Below, piece by piece: positions 674 through 15,992 of a stretch of DNA of 46,645 bases. Both the position numbers and the translations under genes were made by a program. The notes beneath the pieces were generated by a model. It searched no databases. It saw only the letters and a list, made by a program, of their open reading frames with translations, and was not told where the DNA came from. Origin of the DNA: Fistulifera solaris (lineage: Eukaryota); the NCBI GenBank assembly GCA_030295235.1, contig AP026159.1, forward strand, positions 186,001 through 232,645, given 5' to 3'. The first letter of the stretch is position 1, and each line of letters begins with the position of its first letter.

Positions 674-1042
674 TTAATCGTCTAAATCATTTAATTTTTC
701 TTTACTATGGTTCGTTTTGAGTTTATCAAATGTACTCTTATCGATCATCCCAAGAGATCCTGCAAAATGATAAACCTTTAACCAATACGCGTCGTATTTT
801 AATAAATCTTTGACTCCTTGTTCAATAACTTCTCGTGTTAACTTGCTTACAAAGTTAAATGGATAAGAGGGTCTATAATAATCCATTTTTTCCTTATCTA
901 TTAAAAATTCAATATATTTGGGCGTTGCAAAACGAAGCTTGTAGGTATAACCATCCGATAATTCAACAGAAACATCGACAGTACCGTTTTCAATATCAAT
1001 ACACTCTAACTCTTCTGAAATAGAAATATTGATTATTTTCAT
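674..1042 (-). CDS. ORF122, putative immunity/antitoxin protein (Imm8-like by motif)
   Basis: Intact 122-aa ATG ORF with an acidic N-terminus and a beta-beta-'ATP'-helix pattern (DVSVELSDGYTYKLRFATPKYIEFL...FVSKLTREVIEQ...DAYWLK). Lies 32 nt downstream of the putative toxin gene on the same strand. Function is inferred. Confidence 0.7.
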   Translation of the reverse strand: MKIINISISEELECIDIENGTVDVSVELSDGYTYKLRFATPKYIEFLIDKEKMDYYRPSYPFNFVSKLTREVIEQGVKDLLKYDAYWLKVYHFAGSLGMIDKSTFDKLKTNHSKEKLNDLDD

Positions 1043-2599: not shown

Positions 2600-2652
2600 A
2601 AAAATATTGGTTATACATACTTCTGTAGTAAATTTAACAATTAATTTACTTA

Positions 2653-3690
2653 TTAATTTATTGTATTTGTCAAAAAATAATTGAAAGCATCCGTAATAAG
2701 GTCTAAACTGTTACTCTTGCTATGAATTTGAACCAAATTAGTTGTTGATAGAATTTCTGTTGAAATTGACTCGGAGATTAAATTGGTTGATATTATTTGC
2801 TCATTTAGTTGTTTTACGACACTATCTGGTAAAAACTGGATATCCAAATCTTTATAAGCATTTTGCATATATTTCAAAATATCCGGGCGATCATAATACC
2901 AGAATTCTCTTATCTCGTTTGGAATTGGATATCGATACCACAAAATTGGTAAATAATGAAATTTAAGAACGTCTCTCATTTCTTGGTTAATTAACATTTT
3001 TGTTTCTTCTCCTTCGCTTGGTAAGAAAGGCATGGTGAATACTAAATGATTTAAACCATCTGCCATTACACCAAGCAGACCCAAAAAGACACTACCAGTA
3101 ACATTGACACCTAGAATTGCCGGCACAACCCCTTGTAGAATTTCTTCTGTCCAATCAACAGCAGCAGCTAAATAACACCATGGAAAAGTATAAGGGTTAA
3201 TATAAAGAAACCAAGATAGTGCTATTCTAAATATAATAATCTGAGAATAAACCACTAAACCTACAAATAAAACTTCCCTTATTGTTTCTAGAACGGTTAG
3301 ATCTAAACAAATATTTAGTTTGACTTGAATAAATTGAGATAGCCAATCGGGTAAAAAATAAATATTTTTATAATTTTCGATATAAAAGTTATAAAATCCT
3401 TCATCTTGACTCTCATAAATATACTTTGGAACTGTGTCAACTTTTGGTGTTGGACCAAAAATCACCTCAAACCATGTTTCCGGACGTTGAATTGGTGGCC
3501 AGAATGTTTTATGACGTGGAAGACTATCAAGAAGTTTTGATTTAGAATAGACTTCGTTTGAAATATCAGGCATTGTAGGCATTCCTGGATTATTTGGATA
3601 ACCAAATACTCTCGCTATTGTTTGAAAAAAACTAGCGATAATGTCATAAAAAGTGTTTCGAATTGGAATAAATTTTTCGTCTAAACTCAT
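2653..3690 (-). CDS. ycf89: Ycf89, conserved diatom plastid membrane protein
   Basis: 345-aa ORF with GYPNNPGMP, WPPIQRPETWFE and DGLNHLVFTMPFLPSEG motifs; next to trnP as in diatom plastomes. Confidence 0.9.
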   Translation of the reverse strand: MSLDEKFIPIRNTFYDIIASFFQTIARVFGYPNNPGMPTMPDISNEVYSKSKLLDSLPRHKTFWPPIQRPETWFEVIFGPTPKVDTVPKYIYESQDEGFYNFYIENYKNIYFLPDWLSQFIQVKLNICLDLTVLETIREVLFVGLVVYSQIIIFRIALSWFLYINPYTFPWCYLAAAVDWTEEILQGVVPAILGVNVTGSVFLGLLGVMADGLNHLVFTMPFLPSEGEETKMLINQEMRDVLKFHYLPILWYRYPIPNEIREFWYYDRPDILKYMQNAYKDLDIQFLPDSVVKQLNEQIISTNLISESISTEILSTTNLVQIHSKSNSLDLITDAFNYFLTNTIN

Positions 3691-3861
3691 TAGTAGTTTT
3701 GAGTTAATATTAAGTTAATAATTATAGTACTATAACAGGGTTATAAAGAATAATTTCTAGTTATGATAGAAGAGTATAAAAAAGAACTTCAATTCAATCA
3801 ATAGATCTTTTAAATTCTCCATTTCGATTTTCCGTGAAAAAGTCAAGTGTTGATGATGAAA

Positions 3862-3935
3862 TCGGGATAGTAGGATTTGAACCTACGACACCCTGCTCCC
3901 AAAGCAGGTGCTCTACCAAGCTGAGCTATATCCCG
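3862..3935 (-). tRNA. trnP: tRNA-Pro(UGG)
   Basis: Cloverleaf CGGGATATAGCTCAGCTTGG...CCTGC-TTTGGGA-GCAGG...GGTTCAAATCC. Confidence 0.97.
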
Positions 3936-4038
3936 AACTGTGTTGAAATCAGAGAATGGAGCTCTGACACCGGAGATAATACTACAGACTTTCAAATTTT
4001 ACAAGGGGAAAATCAATAGATCGCCAATACATAAGCTA

Positions 4039-4104: not shown

Positions 4105-6306
4105 TTAACCAAATTTACCTGTAGTTGAAGCAATAACAAATGCGGCATAAGTTAAAATATAACCAACAGTAAAGTGAACTAAACCAACTAAACGTGCTTG
4201 AACAATTGAAAGTGCTACAGGTTTATCTCTCCAACGAACTAAATTCGCTAAAGGTGTACGTTCGTGTGCCCATACTAATGTTTCGATTAATTCTTGCCAG
4301 TAACCACGCCATGAAATTAGGAACATAAAGCCTGTTGCCCAAATTAAATGACCAAATAAGAACATCCAAGACCAAACAGATAAATTGTTCATACCAAATG
4401 GGTTATAACCATTAATTAATGGTGATGAATTTAACCATAAGTAATCACGTAACCAACCCATAATATAGTTAGATGACTCATTAAATTGACCTGGGTTACC
4501 ACCCCAAATTGCCATGTGTTTCCAATGCCAGTAGAATGTTACCCAACCAATTGTGTTTAACATCCAGAACATTGCTAAATAAAATGCATCCCAAGCTGAA
4601 ATATCACAAGTACCACCACGACCTGGACCATCACATGGGAAACTGTAACCAAAATCTTTTTTATCTGGCATTAGTTTTGAACCACGTGCGTCTAATGCAC
4701 CTTTGATAAGAATTAAGGCTGTAGTGTGTAAGCCTAATGCAATTGCATGATGAACTAAGAAATCACCAGGGCCAATTGTTAAGAATAAATCATTTTTATT
4801 ATTATTGATAGCTTCAATCCAACCTGGTAACCAAAGTTGATTACCTGCTACTGTCGCTGGACTAGAAGAATTTGATAATAAAACGTTTAATTCGTAAACA
4901 GCTTTACCTGATGCAGCTTGAATATATTCAGCGAATAATGGCTCAAATAAAATTTGTTTCTCTGGTTGACCAAAAGCTACAACCGTATCGTTATGAATAT
5001 ATAAACCTAAGGTGTGGAAACCTAAGAATAACGAAGCCCAACTTAAGTGTGAAATGATAGCTTCTTTATGTTCTAACATTCGAGCTAAAACGTTATTTTT
5101 GTTTAACTCCGGATCATAATCACGAACAAAGAAAATTGCGCCGTGTGCAAAAGCACCAACCATTAAGAAACCAGCAATATATTGGTGATGAGTATATAAT
5201 GCAGCTTCTGTTGTAAAATCTTTTGATAAGAATGCATACGGAGTAATTGAGTACATATGTTGAGCTGTCAAAGATGTAGCAACACCTAAACATGCTAAGG
5301 CTAATCCAAGTTGCATATGCAACGAATTAGTAATTGTCTCAAATAATCCAGTATGACCAGCTCCTAAACGACCTCCTGGAGGACGGTGAGCATCTAAGAT
5401 TTCTTTCATATTGTGACCAATTCCGAAATTAGTTCGGTACATATGGCCAGCTACAATAAATACAACCGCAATTGCTAAATGATGGTGTGCCATGTCACTT
5501 AACCATAATGATTGAGTTTGAGGATGGAAACCACCTAAGAAAGTTAAAATTGCTGTACCAGCACCTTCAGCTGTACCATAAACATGACTCGCACTATCTG
5601 GATTTTCAGCATAAACAGTCCAATTTCCAGTGTAGAACGGAGTTAAACCAGCTGGATGTGGAGGAGTTGTTAAGAAATTATCCCAACCTACATGAACACC
5701 ACGAGAGGCAGGAATAGCAACGTGTACAGTATGACCAGTCCAAGCTAATGAACTTACACCCGCTAAACCTGATAAATGGTGATTCAAACGTGACTCGTTG
5801 TTTTTAAACCACGATAAACTCGGGCGGAATTTTGGTTGTAGATGTAACCAGCCCGCAAATAATAAAGCTGATGATAATAATAATAAACCAATCGCGCCTT
5901 GATATAATTCTTGGTTAGTTCGTAAACCAATTGTATACCACCATTGGTAAACACCTGAGTACGTAATGTTAACAGGATATGTGTTACCTTTACTAAATGC
6001 TTTAATAGCCGCTTCACCAAAATGTGGATCCCAAATTGAATGTGCAATTGGTTTCACTTTTAATGGATCGCTAACCCATTTTTCAAAATTTCCTTGCCAA
6101 GCAACATGGAATAAGTTTCCTGCTGTCCATAAGAAGATAACTGCTAAGTGACCGAAGTGTGACGCAAAAATTTTTTGGTATAAATTTTCTTCCGTCATAC
6201 CGTCATGCGCTTCTAAATCGTGCGCAGTCGCAATACCATACCAAATTCTTCGTGTTGCTGGATCTTGTGCAAGGGCTTGACTAAACTTTGGAAATTTAGT
6301 TGCCAT
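4105..6306 (-). CDS. psaB: Photosystem I P700 apoprotein A2
   Basis: [10 protein letters not shown] start, [14 protein letters not shown] motif, 733 aa. Confidence 0.99.
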
Positions 6307-10082: not shown

Positions 10083-10436
10083 TCAATAATCGGAAGTGTA
10101 ATTAATTGTGTTCGTAGAATCATTTAGATTTGTATATAGTGGGTACGCTTTTGAAACAGTAAGTTGAACTTTTTTCATGGGTAATGAGCTATAATTTAGT
10201 GTTTCATTTTTGACCAAAGAAATATAACCTTCAACTAGAAGATAGTCACCCATTTTACAGTAAGATGTTACATCTTGAGCGAAATTACCCCAAAACATTA
10301 GCTCTATGATTTGTGTAGTTCTTAATAAAGGTAATTGACCTCTAAATCTAGTAATTAAGATGTTATTTTCTAATAATTCTTGTCTAGGCAATTCTAAAAT
10401 TTTAATAATTCCTGCTATATAGTTTATAGACGTCAT
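10083..10436 (-). CDS. ycf41: Ycf41, SSB/OB-fold-like protein
   Basis: 117 aa; FWGNFAQD...GDYLLVEGYI SSB-like pattern; position between ycf39 and psbI. Confidence 0.85.
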   Translation of the reverse strand: MTSINYIAGIIKILELPRQELLENNILITRFRGQLPLLRTTQIIELMFWGNFAQDVTSYCKMGDYLLVEGYISLVKNETLNYSSLPMKKVQLTVSKAYPLYTNLNDSTNTINYTSDY

Positions 10437-11443: not shown

Positions 11444-12315
11444 TTAATCGTTAAAAACTGTACTTTGTAAAATGTCTTGGGCTTCAATATTAACTAATTC
11501 TCGTTTTGTTAAAACTTGACCACGACTTTCAAAAATTCGATTTGCTTGACGCATTCGAGCACGATCTAATGCATTTTTTACACTACGGGCATTAGCAAAT
11601 AATGGTTTTTGTTTTCGTTTGTAAATATATTGTGCTAATGCTTGTTCTGCTTCAGGTGTTAACTGATATTGCTGATCTTGTAGCATCAATTTTGAAATTT
11701 GTAATAGTTCTTCAACCGTATAATCAGGAAAATCAATATGGTTTGCAATTCGCGAAGATAACCCTGGATTAGATTCATAAAATTTATCCATAGGTTGTTT
11801 ATAACCAGCTAAAATAACAACTAATTCATCACGTTGATTTTCCATGACTTGTAATAAGATTTCAATAGCTTCTGCTCCATAATCTCGTTCGTTATCTGGT
11901 TTATATAAATAATAAGCTTCATCAATAAATAAAACACCACCCATCGCTTTTTTAAGTACCTCTTTAGTTTTAGGAGCAGTGTGTCCGATGTATTGTCCAA
12001 CTAGATCATCACGCGTAACAGTTAAAAGATGACCCTTTTGATATAACCTAATTGATACAAGATATCGGCCATTTTTAATCCAACAGTAGTTTTACCCGTA
12101 CCTGGACTTCCAGTAAATGACATATGTAAACCAGGACTACCAGCAACGATTCCTAAATTTTTTCGTAATTTGTCAATTAATAATAATGCTGCAATTTCAC
12201 GAATTCTTGACTTAACTGGCGCTAAACCTACTAGTTCTTCATCTAGCAAGTTTAAAACCTTAGCTATTTCTGTTTTTGCATATTCTTCTTGTAAATAAAC
12301 GGGAGATGTATTCAT
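11444..12315 (-). CDS. cbbX: Red-type Rubisco activase CbbX (frameshift ~12035)
   Basis: [13 protein letters not shown]alker [13 protein letters not shown]alker [11 protein letters not shown]. Confidence 0.97.
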
Positions 12316-12448
12316 AAGTTTTAAATTTTCAAATAAATAAGTTGTACTTAAATGTCTCTTGAAAGACATATTAAGTACATAAATGATCTACTATACTCTC
12401 AGAATTCTCGTTATTAAAACTGAATTACCGTGATATAGTAGCAAATTT

Positions 12449-14721: not shown

Positions 14722-15992
14722 TCAAAATTTTTTTCTAAATTTTTTAATAATTTTTTTGAACAAGCGTGTAACATTTGTTAGCATTGGATTAGTCCGGTTA
14801 GTTCCACGACCAAACCAACCATACCAGAGTTTCGGAAAAACTCGATTTAAGATTTTTTCTTTTTCCTTCGGATCTTGCCATGATGTATATCCCCCACTAT
14901 AAATACTATTCGCTGGACGTGGACCAACATGTAATTCGGTATTTTCAACGAGGAACGGAACATAAAAATATTGTCCCCAAATAGCGTGGAATAAACCAAA
15001 AATAATGAATCCAATGTGAGCTAAAACGACACATGTAATAATACCATTTAGAAGATTCATTTGTAAAATTAAGCTGGGATCAACATAATTGGCGTAAGCT
15101 TTTGTTTGAGGAATTAAAACAAAACTTTGAAAATAATAAACCCGATATATAAAATAAATCAAAATTTGTTCAATTAATCCAATAATAAGTAGGAAAGTCC
15201 AATGCCACCTGATCAAATATGGACAATACCGTTTGCCAATTCGAGTTATGATAGCATACGCTGCCACTCCTGATAATTGATTCCAAAATTTACTCACAAT
15301 TTCATATATTTTTGGGATTGCTTCGTTATAAATACTATAATAGATTGGGAAAACCTTTGATTTTAATGGCTCGTTTAAATTTGAAACAATCATGGAAATT
15401 GGGTCCATATAATAACGTAAACCAGTTTCAGAATCTACATTTACTACTCCTTTAGTAAAACCATAATATAGAATTTGTCCGGGATTGTACCAATTAACAT
15501 TTTCACCTAATTTTAAATCAGTTAATGCCATTTGACGATGAAGTGAGCGTAATTGAACAGCATCCATTCCTAAGCGATTTAAAAATGGCAGTTTTAATAA
15601 TACATTTCTATACATTGATACCAAATCAATTAAATGCCGATACCAAAGATATCCAGCAAAAGCCCGATACAAGTAATATAAAATGAGGTTTTTAAATTAT
15701 AACGGAATGTAAGAATTATAAATCGAATAAAAAGAATGAAAAATAAAACGTTTTCAATATCAGCTAAAGTCAGACCATCTTGAACTTTTTCCCATAACCC
15801 TTCAATAATTAATCTAAAGGTTTCTAAAGAGACCTCAGTTGAGGATTCAAAATTTGAAATATTTAATTCAGATCCTTGGTCTGCTGCTTGAAGAAATTGT
15901 TTATTGGTTGGATCATCTATTCCAAACCAATTTAAGACTGTTTCTTGATCAATATTGATCAAAAGAAGTAAAAGTCGAAAAAGATATAACAT
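14722..15992 (-). CDS. ycf90: Ycf90, diatom plastid membrane protein (frameshift ~15660)
   Basis: ORFs 15630..15992 and 14722..15672 join; RYNLKTSFYITCIGL-AGYLWYRH, YCPYLIRWHWT and LWYGWFGRG motifs; position between psbJ and trnE. Confidence 0.88.

Follow-up and report, generated by a model that had tools for sequence, protein, structure and literature searches.

This analysis concerns ORF122, an open reading frame (ORF) of 122 codons, and the interrupted toxin gene next to it in a 46,645-nucleotide stretch of DNA from Fistulifera solaris (contig AP026159.1, positions 186,001 to 232,645). The whole stretch is referred to as the window in the following, and positions are counted from its first letter. 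The window consists of AT-rich plastid DNA carrying psaB, psaA, psbB, psbC, psbD, rbcL, rbcS, ycf4, ycf90, psaL and RNA polymerase genes. It was treated as a diatom-type plastid genome because of this plastid gene content and because named relatives of ORF122 come from the plastids of Navicula arenaria and Seminavis robusta. ORF122 is located on the minus strand (674–1042, stop codon 674–676), begins with ATG and is free of internal stops. Given the base composition, chance alone would produce about 0.4 ORFs of this length in the whole window, so that length is weak evidence of a gene; it is homology that identifies ORF122 as a real one. The six closest relatives share 53–73% identity with it (E 1e-24 to 5e-36), and a scan of the window with the hidden Markov model (HMM) of the family returned ORF122 as the sole match (E 1e-45). 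A contig from run X1 covering 715–1038 is identical to the window within ORF122. The first-pass annotation, which was made from the sequence alone, had described ORF122 as an intact, immunity-like gene resembling Imm8, with a DAYWLK motif, retained beside an interrupted toxin gene. Intactness and motif were both borne out: D-A-Y-W-L-K occupies residues 84–89, Y-W-L-K is invariant across seven close sequences, ORF122 included, and the alignment of these sequences (A1) holds 25 invariant columns.

An AlphaFold model of ORF122, based on an alignment of 105 rows picked from 155 proteins by length (100–190 amino acids), had a predicted local distance difference test score (pLDDT) of 92.6. The model comprises strands at residues 3–8, 21–28 and 33–39, the dipeptide T40-P41, a helix at 41–50, a two-residue strand at 62–63 and helices at 70–80, 82–94 and 102–121. 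The order threonine-proline, helix, strand, helix proposed in the first-pass annotation is closely reproduced, but three strands rather than two precede it.

An exhaustive HMMER search of a library of 1.8 billion proteins placed at least 193 cluster representatives in the ORF122 family at E≤1e-3 and 50 at E≤1e-10, and a profile search returned 366 proteins, among them plastid proteins annotated as ‘hypothetical’ in Navicula arenaria and Seminavis robusta. When 105 relatives were scanned singly, 27 matched Imm8 (PF15586) at E≤0.1, and any other family was matched by at most two. The Imm8 matches that were inspected are colinear, with protein residues ~20–100 lying on profile positions ~30–104. 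One relative, P0087, exceeded the Pfam cut-off for PF15586 (28.7 bits vs 27), and this protein was recovered with ORF122 at E 4.7e-8 in the library of 1.8 billion proteins. In the ESM Atlas, ORF122 was nearest to unnamed bacterial clusters (Bacillota, Bacteroidota), and the Atlas structure search retrieved a cluster that is 94% Imm8 (TM 0.57/0.57 over 94 residues). The sections of Zhang et al. (2012, PMC3482391) used here describe Imm8 as an alpha+beta protein with a ‘WEa’ motif near the C-terminus. They also give it as the principal immunity partner of Ntox7, a toxin domain for which the Barnase-EndoU-ColicinE5/D-RelE (BECR) fold is predicted. The ORF122 model, with three strands and four helices, is likewise alpha+beta. 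We therefore read ORF122 as a distant branch of the Imm8 superfamily that is not a member by the Pfam rule, which upholds the suggested Imm8 identity at superfamily level only and leaves ORF122 itself below any Pfam Imm8 score.

Searches of solved structures at the sequence level with the immunity and toxin family profiles gave nothing useful. No PF15586 protein was found in five genomes with ORF122-type loci or in 401 sampled Bacillota genomes, and the control genomes likewise yielded none. In an unrooted maximum-likelihood tree of the family, 40 of the 41 Bacillota rows were on one side, and the diatom rows formed two groups, i.e. the clade of the window and a Navicula/Seminavis clade that includes P0087. 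Since the tree is unrooted and many of its rows are of unassigned origin, the donor cannot be named. Scans of viral contigs, bacterial plasmids and phages detected no relative of ORF122.

The interrupted toxin gene upstream of ORF122

On the same strand, upstream of ORF122, a toxin pseudogene extends from 2023 to 1073 (stop codon 1073–1075). It is homologous along its length to an open gene of 378 codons in the metagenome locus L001; the DNA identity with L001 is 87.7% over window positions 2023–697 and 92% in the toxin part (2023–1076, blastn). Longer open relatives of 379–391 residues also exist (P0271–P0273). The ORF list shows the pseudogene as pieces from 2014 down to ~1076, tblastn recovered it as three pieces in three frames, and the toxin HMM matched at 1494–1889, 1170–1490 and 1078–1230. 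For the first ~60 codons of the L001 toxin, the best window match is not significant (E 0.46, with stops), and a pair of one-base indels near 1983 and 1971 compensate each other relative to the L001 frame.

Two lesions disrupt the remaining frame, namely a one-base gap relative to L001 near 1821 (1817–1822), which shifts the frame between ORF66 and ORF108, and an in-frame TAG at 1491–1493, opposite a Cys codon in L001. Run X1 contains 93% of the words sampled from the toxin/immunity stretch at a depth of ~900, and one of its contigs, 555 bases in length (1389–1943), matches the window without differences or gaps. As X1 is an independent run, both lesions are confirmed by this match, and the toxin partner is interrupted as the first-pass annotation had stated. 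A third lesion is doubtful: at the A4 run 1207–1210 the window lacks one base that is present in L001 and in the X1 and X3 contigs, which have an additional A after 1206. These runs are from different studies, X3 being a metatranscriptome. Because of this extra A and of other indel trouble in the window, the third lesion is probably an assembly error.

With the extra A restored, an in-frame ATG at 1419–1421 opens a frame of ~113 codons that covers the entire C-terminal toxin domain (region 1073–1421, delimited by ORF84 at 1167–1421, alignment A4 and the fold of the L001 counterpart) and stops 30 bases short of ORF122. Hence, a short stand-alone toxin frame may survive in the window genome. This qualifies the orphan-immunity state that had been proposed for ORF122: the long form of the toxin is dead, broken by the stop codon and the frameshift while ORF122 is still whole, but orphanhood is uncertain as long as the short frame may be open. 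Of note, the Met at 1419–1421 follows the TAG stop by 23 codons, and a short toxin may start there internally. L001, L004 and P0273 likewise have a Met immediately ahead of the domain.

To what family does this domain belong? The C-terminal ~100 residues of the L001 toxin were modelled with a pLDDT of 87.6 (18-row alignment), yielding helices at 16–26 and 29–43, four main strands (52–55, 62–65, 71–77, 80–87) and a helix at 92–103, which is the RelE/ParE fold with its N-terminal helices in front of a four-stranded sheet. The best Foldseek matches were YafQ, RelE, YoeB and HigB (best E 3e-4, TM 0.65/0.75, probability 1.00). Among the first 24 rows of a VIA search, most were RelE/ParE-superfamily toxins (YoeB, YafQ, RelE, ParE, HigB) or larger proteins with such a domain; YoeB was the top row (Z 9.8, rmsd 2.6 over 83 residues), and YafQ scored Z 9.3. 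In addition, the PADLOC model CARF_RelE matched residues 291–367 of the L001 toxin (E 7.7e-5). In an alignment of 18 toxin tips, R71 and K89 are invariant and R65 nearly so. These residues are candidate counterparts of the catalytic R61 and R81 of RelE and, by composition, fit the signature ‘[KR], R’ that is given for Tox-RelE in the sections of Zhang et al. (2012, PMC3482391) used here. Pfam, including Ntox7 and all other toxin models, and sequence searches of solved structures returned no match for this domain, and the ~270-residue N-terminal part of the diatom toxin has no Pfam match and no usable Atlas match.

According to these models, the C-terminal domain belongs to the RelE/ParE superfamily (BECR fold) and is most likely an RNase cutting RNA. 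The toxin gene thus encodes an N-terminal part of ~270 residues followed by a putative RNase domain of ~100 residues, and an ORF122-type protein would most likely neutralise this domain by binding to it, in the manner of immunity proteins against rearrangement hotspot (RHS) and contact-dependent inhibition (CDI) toxins. A complex prediction for the L001 toxin tip with ORF122 scored 0.02 against a mark of 0.34; it was run without purpose-made alignments and counts neither way.

Toxin-then-immunity order in bacteria and diatom plastids

Genome contigs scanned with the close diatom sequences only gave no bacterial locus, and the 105-row alignment was too diverse for scanning. Prokaryotes, represented by one genome per species, were scanned with a 13-row bacterial-like subset of the immunity alignment. 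This detected 44 loci, 42 of them good matches, nearly all in Bacillota (Paenibacillus, clostridia, Enterococcus, Lysinibacillus). In five of these loci (L012, L019, L026, L027, L030) an RHS-repeat protein of 1147–1992 residues ends 4–10 bases before the ORF122 homolog; RHS repeats were present in 5 of the 25 upstream proteins scanned. In L012 the RHS-associated core lies ~205 residues before the protein end, which makes its tip a classical variable RHS toxin. An HMM built from five diatom toxin sequences alone found the extreme C-termini of bacterial upstream proteins (E 1e-18 to 2e-11), and with the full toxin HMM a toxin tip was located at most 120 nucleotides 5’ of the immunity homolog in 21 of the 42 loci, 13 of which are in the HMM seed and 8 outside it. 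Some bacterial tips belong to full proteins, others are remnants of 38–76 codons, and short toxin-tip ORFs directly precede the immunity gene in L021 (103 amino acids) and L022 (80 amino acids). Tandem immunity paralogs, two to eight in number, occur in 9 of the 42 loci, and the upstream neighbour in L018 is an Imm42 protein. These neighbourhoods are the standard picture of polymorphic toxin loci. ORF122 homologs are thus indeed found downstream of toxin domains, and the relatives of ORF122, whose own neighbour is a decayed toxin gene, are found directly behind RHS toxin tips and in multi-immunity arrays. A RelE-fold RHS tip turns out to be common in Bacillota, and it comes with an immunity family of its own that lacks a Pfam model and matches Imm8 weakly.

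The largest array among the 42 loci is that of an Enterococcus sp. (L043:3869-7615), where eight immunity paralogs are lined up in tandem behind a single RelE-fold toxin tip. In Pseudobacteroides cellulosolvens (L017:5122-6729) an ORF of 535 residues has a DUF6557 domain first and an ORF122-type immunity domain further on, and may be a fused multi-immunity protein.

The same gene order was found in diatom plastid DNA. Eight metagenome loci represent six distinct sequences, L002 being equal to L003 and L004 to L005 across the shared parts. In L001 the toxin gene is followed by an immunity gene to which another toxin tip is joined in frame, and then by one further immunity gene. In L004/L005 the toxin is open for 341 codons, its first 44 codons being separated by an in-frame stop, and the immunity gene comes next; further on, the degenerate remnant of a tip and another two immunity genes are present. 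L008 carries a tip remnant followed by an immunity gene. Altogether, a toxin-tip match is present upstream of seven of the nine assessable diatom immunity copies, the window included. In the window and L004 the cassettes adjoin psaB and a conserved ORF of 345 codons, their orientations being opposite; the L002 cassette is flanked by ftsH and rps14.

The in-frame arrangement in L001 (L001:1359-2036, 226 codons) is shared by P0009 (216 residues): in both, the immunity domain is in frame with a second RelE-fold tip, which in L001 is followed by another immunity gene. This build could be either a real toxin-immunity fusion or an orphan tip in frame by chance.

The comparison with L001 further points to exchange of modules. 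The toxin part of the window is 92% identical to L001, with a synonymous divergence (dS) of ~0.10, whereas the immunity part is 72% identical (dS ~0.67), and the switch is located at the start of the immunity gene. Because of this drop, ORF122 is not the orthologue of the first immunity gene of L001, and the sequences indicate that one module was swapped by recombination.

As toxin-then-immunity order recurs in bacteria, we conclude that ORF122 and the toxin gene form a polymorphic-toxin-type toxin/immunity cassette in diatom plastid DNA. We put the probability at about three in four that ORF122 supplies the immunity half of a two-gene cassette, bacterial and polymorphic-toxin in type, that resides as foreign DNA in a diatom-type plastid genome and in which the toxin gene has decayed. 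What is chiefly new is that diatom plastid genomes are home to a bacterial family of RelE-fold toxin/immunity cassettes that includes orphan modules and shows swapping of modules. No report of toxin/immunity genes in diatom plastids was found in the full-text literature searched, a coverage that does not extend to subscription journals.

Several observations weigh against this conclusion. ORF122 itself has no match in Pfam, NCBIfam or PADLOC, and PF15586 does not match it at E≤1, leaving it below the 27-bit gathering cut-off. Nor did its model retrieve a solved structure with Foldseek at E≤0.001, the best VIA hit having Z 3.2, an absence that shows neither a new fold nor the lack of a known one. 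The Imm8 link thus comes through the relatives. The probable counterpart of the ‘WEa’ motif in ORF122 reads W-L-K (W87-L88-K89-V90-Y91), with the Trp conserved in close relatives. In two of the diatom sequences both genes are damaged: L002/L003 have a toxin with stops and an immunity gene with a stop at codon 12, and L006 has lost all of the toxin to deletion except for a short N-terminal remnant and carries a frameshift in the immunity gene. Moreover, ORF122 may have been swapped in and so may not be cognate to the adjoining toxin. Finally, neither RHS nor any other known trafficking or N-terminal domain was detected in the diatom toxins by Pfam and Atlas searches, and we know of no route for delivering such a toxin in a plastid; for these two reasons ‘polymorphic toxin’ describes the ancestry of the cassette more than its present mechanism.

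Present state of the cassette

The first-pass annotation had taken the intact ORF122 as a sign of continuing selection for protection. The data do not show this. Given two to three lesions in the 948 bases of the toxin gene, a gene of 366 bases stays unbroken by chance with P 0.46–0.31, and for this reason the intactness of ORF122 is no evidence of selection. In the tree, ORF122 belongs to a clade of seven diatom rows (support 100/92, maximum likelihood), in which its end branch measures 0.74, vs 0.18–0.46 for five of its six clade-mates and 0.8 for the sixth, L004_b. Its pairwise ratio of nonsynonymous to synonymous divergence (dN/dS, Nei-Gojobori) to the nearest relative, the L006 pseudogene, is 0.89 (76 codons) or 0.63 (45 codons), and, as described above, L002/L003 and L006 have broken immunity genes.

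The same data speak for the first alternative, namely that ORF122 is a functionless relic of a cassette that is decaying as a whole, and owes its intactness to small size and recent decay alone; we regard this as possible, if tentative. It would also agree with the lack of a clear ORF122 transcript: the sole metatranscriptome contig on ORF122 (711–788) has seven differences and stems from a relative, and parts left uncovered by contigs prove nothing. However, ORF122 keeps the 25 columns invariant in A1 and its model is confident, and its dN/dS to eight other diatom copies is 0.29–0.59, below neutrality, the L006 pseudogene inflating its own pair. Among the diatom immunity copies in general, pairwise dN/dS in the pairs computed ranges from 0.12 to 0.92, and all values of at least 0.6 involve an L006 fragment; the family as a whole is therefore constrained. 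Taken together, the data are compatible with early relaxation on ORF122.

The second alternative, which we consider rather unlikely, is a working addiction module, in which the short RelE-fold toxin (1419–1421 to 1073–1075, ~113 codons) is made and ORF122 is kept to neutralise it. If the short frame is real, selection keeping ORF122 would be expected, and ORF122 might then be of present-day benefit. The extra A after 1206 in X1 (depth ~895) and X3 removes the third frameshift, and the window assembly has other indel problems, psbB being split in three frames with conserved translation of each piece. The recurrence of the Met at the domain boundary in L001, L004 and P0273 and the comparable short bacterial ORFs before the immunity gene in L021 and L022 fit such a toxin as well. 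Furthermore, metatranscriptome contigs of X3 and X4 match 1035–1461 exactly, the stretch of the short toxin frame, and leave the upstream part uncovered. This is a lead and not a finding: X3 and X4 are from one study, contigs cannot show transcript ends, and carry-over of DNA is possible. There is also no excess of promoter-like sites (15 vs 10.7 ± 3.7 in shuffles), and translation from the internal ATG and activity of the toxin without its N-terminal part are assumptions.

A third possibility is that ORF122-type proteins do not block the toxin and are regulators or maintenance factors of a mobile element that travel with the toxin gene. Toxin binding by these proteins is something that we infer, the ORF122 model has no solved fold relative, and all 120 of the 120 relatives listed lack a precomputed Pfam domain. 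We nevertheless judge this possibility very improbable. The tight succession of toxin and ORF, separated by a few bases, in half of the bacterial loci, arrays of up to eight paralogs behind one toxin and the Imm42 neighbour argue against it, and the Imm8 signal is likewise a signature of immunity genes. Lastly, it is very improbable that the toxin gene is intact in the organism and that all interruptions are assembly errors: although core genes in the window are split by frameshift (psbB, atpA or atpB, ycf90, rpoC1, a cbbX-like gene) and two single-A differences to X1 contigs occur within 2.4 kb (after 1206 and after 2565), the X1 contig 1389–1943 matches across both the TAG and the 1821 frameshift, the change of TGC to TAG takes two substitutions rather than an indel, and the first ~60 codons of L001 are without significant counterpart.

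Insertion site and related systems

The order of genes on the minus strand is psaB (4105–6306), tRNA-Pro (3861–3936), the 345-codon ORF (2653–3690), the toxin pieces, ORF122 and ORF88 (40–306, 88 codons). The 345-codon ORF is a conserved plastid gene with a weak YGGT-like match, provides the host context of the insertion and also adjoins psaB in L004. ORF88 repeats the end of this gene. At the DNA level, a diverged copy of the 3’ end of the 345-codon ORF (25–452, strand not assigned) is 74% identical to 2629–3059 (blastn), and this direct repeat of ~430 bases brackets a cassette of ~2.2 kb; L007 has the same layout. Integration of a circular element, carrying a copy of that gene end, by a single crossover within the 345-codon gene would fit the flanking direct repeat.

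Core genes split by frameshift, with conserved translation on either side, were noted at 22962–24491, 32202–33349, 14722–15992, 39547–42089 and 11444–12369. Two genes of the window are in two pieces, i.e. ycf90 and a gene of the ATP synthase alpha/beta family (atpA or atpB), and rpoC1, rpoB and the cbbX-like gene are fragmented. The split core genes and the single-A differences look like homopolymer-length errors of the assembly rather than biology. Further ORFs of 117–209 codons without Pfam match at E≤1e-5 are located at 10083–10436, 34566–34922, 35292–35705, 44440–44796 and 45203–45832; some may be pieces of split genes (e.g. rpoB) and others further foreign ORFs.

How does the cassette compare with known systems? 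With Imm8, ORF122 shares the small alpha+beta build, a position directly after a BECR (RelE-like) tip toxin and a conserved Trp near the end of the core. It differs in scoring below the Pfam thresholds, in having the motif W-L-K-(V/L)-Y instead of ‘WEa’, in a partner that is not detected as Ntox7 and in its location in plastid DNA. As far as the sections of Zhang et al. (2012, PMC3482391) used here go, Tox-RelE is known as a polymorphic toxin from a single case, an RHS protein of Paenibacillus elgii, and its partner is listed as Imm54. RHS proteins with a C-terminal RelE-fold domain, encoded in Paenibacillus and further Bacillota (L012, L019, L026, L027, L030), resemble the published description of this case; the diatom toxins differ from it by the lack of RHS repeats. 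Imm54 was considered as the family of ORF122 and rejected: it is absent from the list of the 25 Pfam families most often matched by the 105 members and had no match in members scanned singly.

Type II systems with RelE/ParE toxins (RelBE, YefM-YoeB, DinJ-YafQ, HigBA) share the toxin fold (Z 8–9.8), and in HigBA the toxin gene comes first, as in the pair studied here. Without secretion in a plastid, the toxin/ORF122 pair would have to act as an addiction module as these systems do. In contrast to them, ORF122 lies downstream and belongs to no known family of DNA-binding antitoxins (no Pfam or NCBIfam domain, no solved fold relative), and the diatom toxin has a long N-terminal extension and relatives that are tips of RHS proteins. 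Orphan toxin-tip/immunity modules are a feature of CDI and Rhs loci. The extra tips in L001 and L004, which lack N-terminal parts and are each followed by an immunity gene, are like such modules, as are the short bacterial tip remnants, whereas the in-frame fusion of the second L001 tip to the preceding immunity gene, also built into P0009, and the organelle host are unlike them. Of the features of RHS-type polymorphic toxin systems, the immunity gene directly 3’ of the tip is seen in bacterial and diatom loci and the immunity arrays in bacterial ones; the large N-terminal repeat region is confined to the bacterial relatives.

Diatom plastid genomes are known to hold foreign, partly plasmid-derived ORFs in expanded intergenic regions, and in the portions of Ruck et al. 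(2014, PMC3971590) used here, recombinases and a few ORFs are traced to plasmids and most of the extra DNA is left unexplained. The 2.2-kb insertion resembles these cases in being composed of lineage-specific ORFs at variable sites of an otherwise compact plastid genome. Unlike the ORFs covered in those portions, the toxin/ORF122 pair gains a family and a likely function.

A recurrent pair of ‘hypothetical’ diatom plastid ORFs now has a family, a likely mechanism and bacterial relatives, and conflict modules, otherwise a bacterial feature, are mobile in chloroplast DNA as well. More speculatively, diatom plastid genomes, and perhaps resident plasmids, might host mobile, recombining RelE-fold/Imm8-like cassettes that act as addiction or genome-conflict modules in the organelle, holding foreign DNA in place, competing between plastid genome copies and leaving orphan immunity genes behind. 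We put this forward tentatively. If it is true, organelles would have their own equivalent of polymorphic toxin and toxin-antitoxin systems. Should the cassette be active in certain diatoms, a selfish toxin/immunity module would be at work inside an organelle, which could explain the persistence of foreign DNA in compact plastid genomes.

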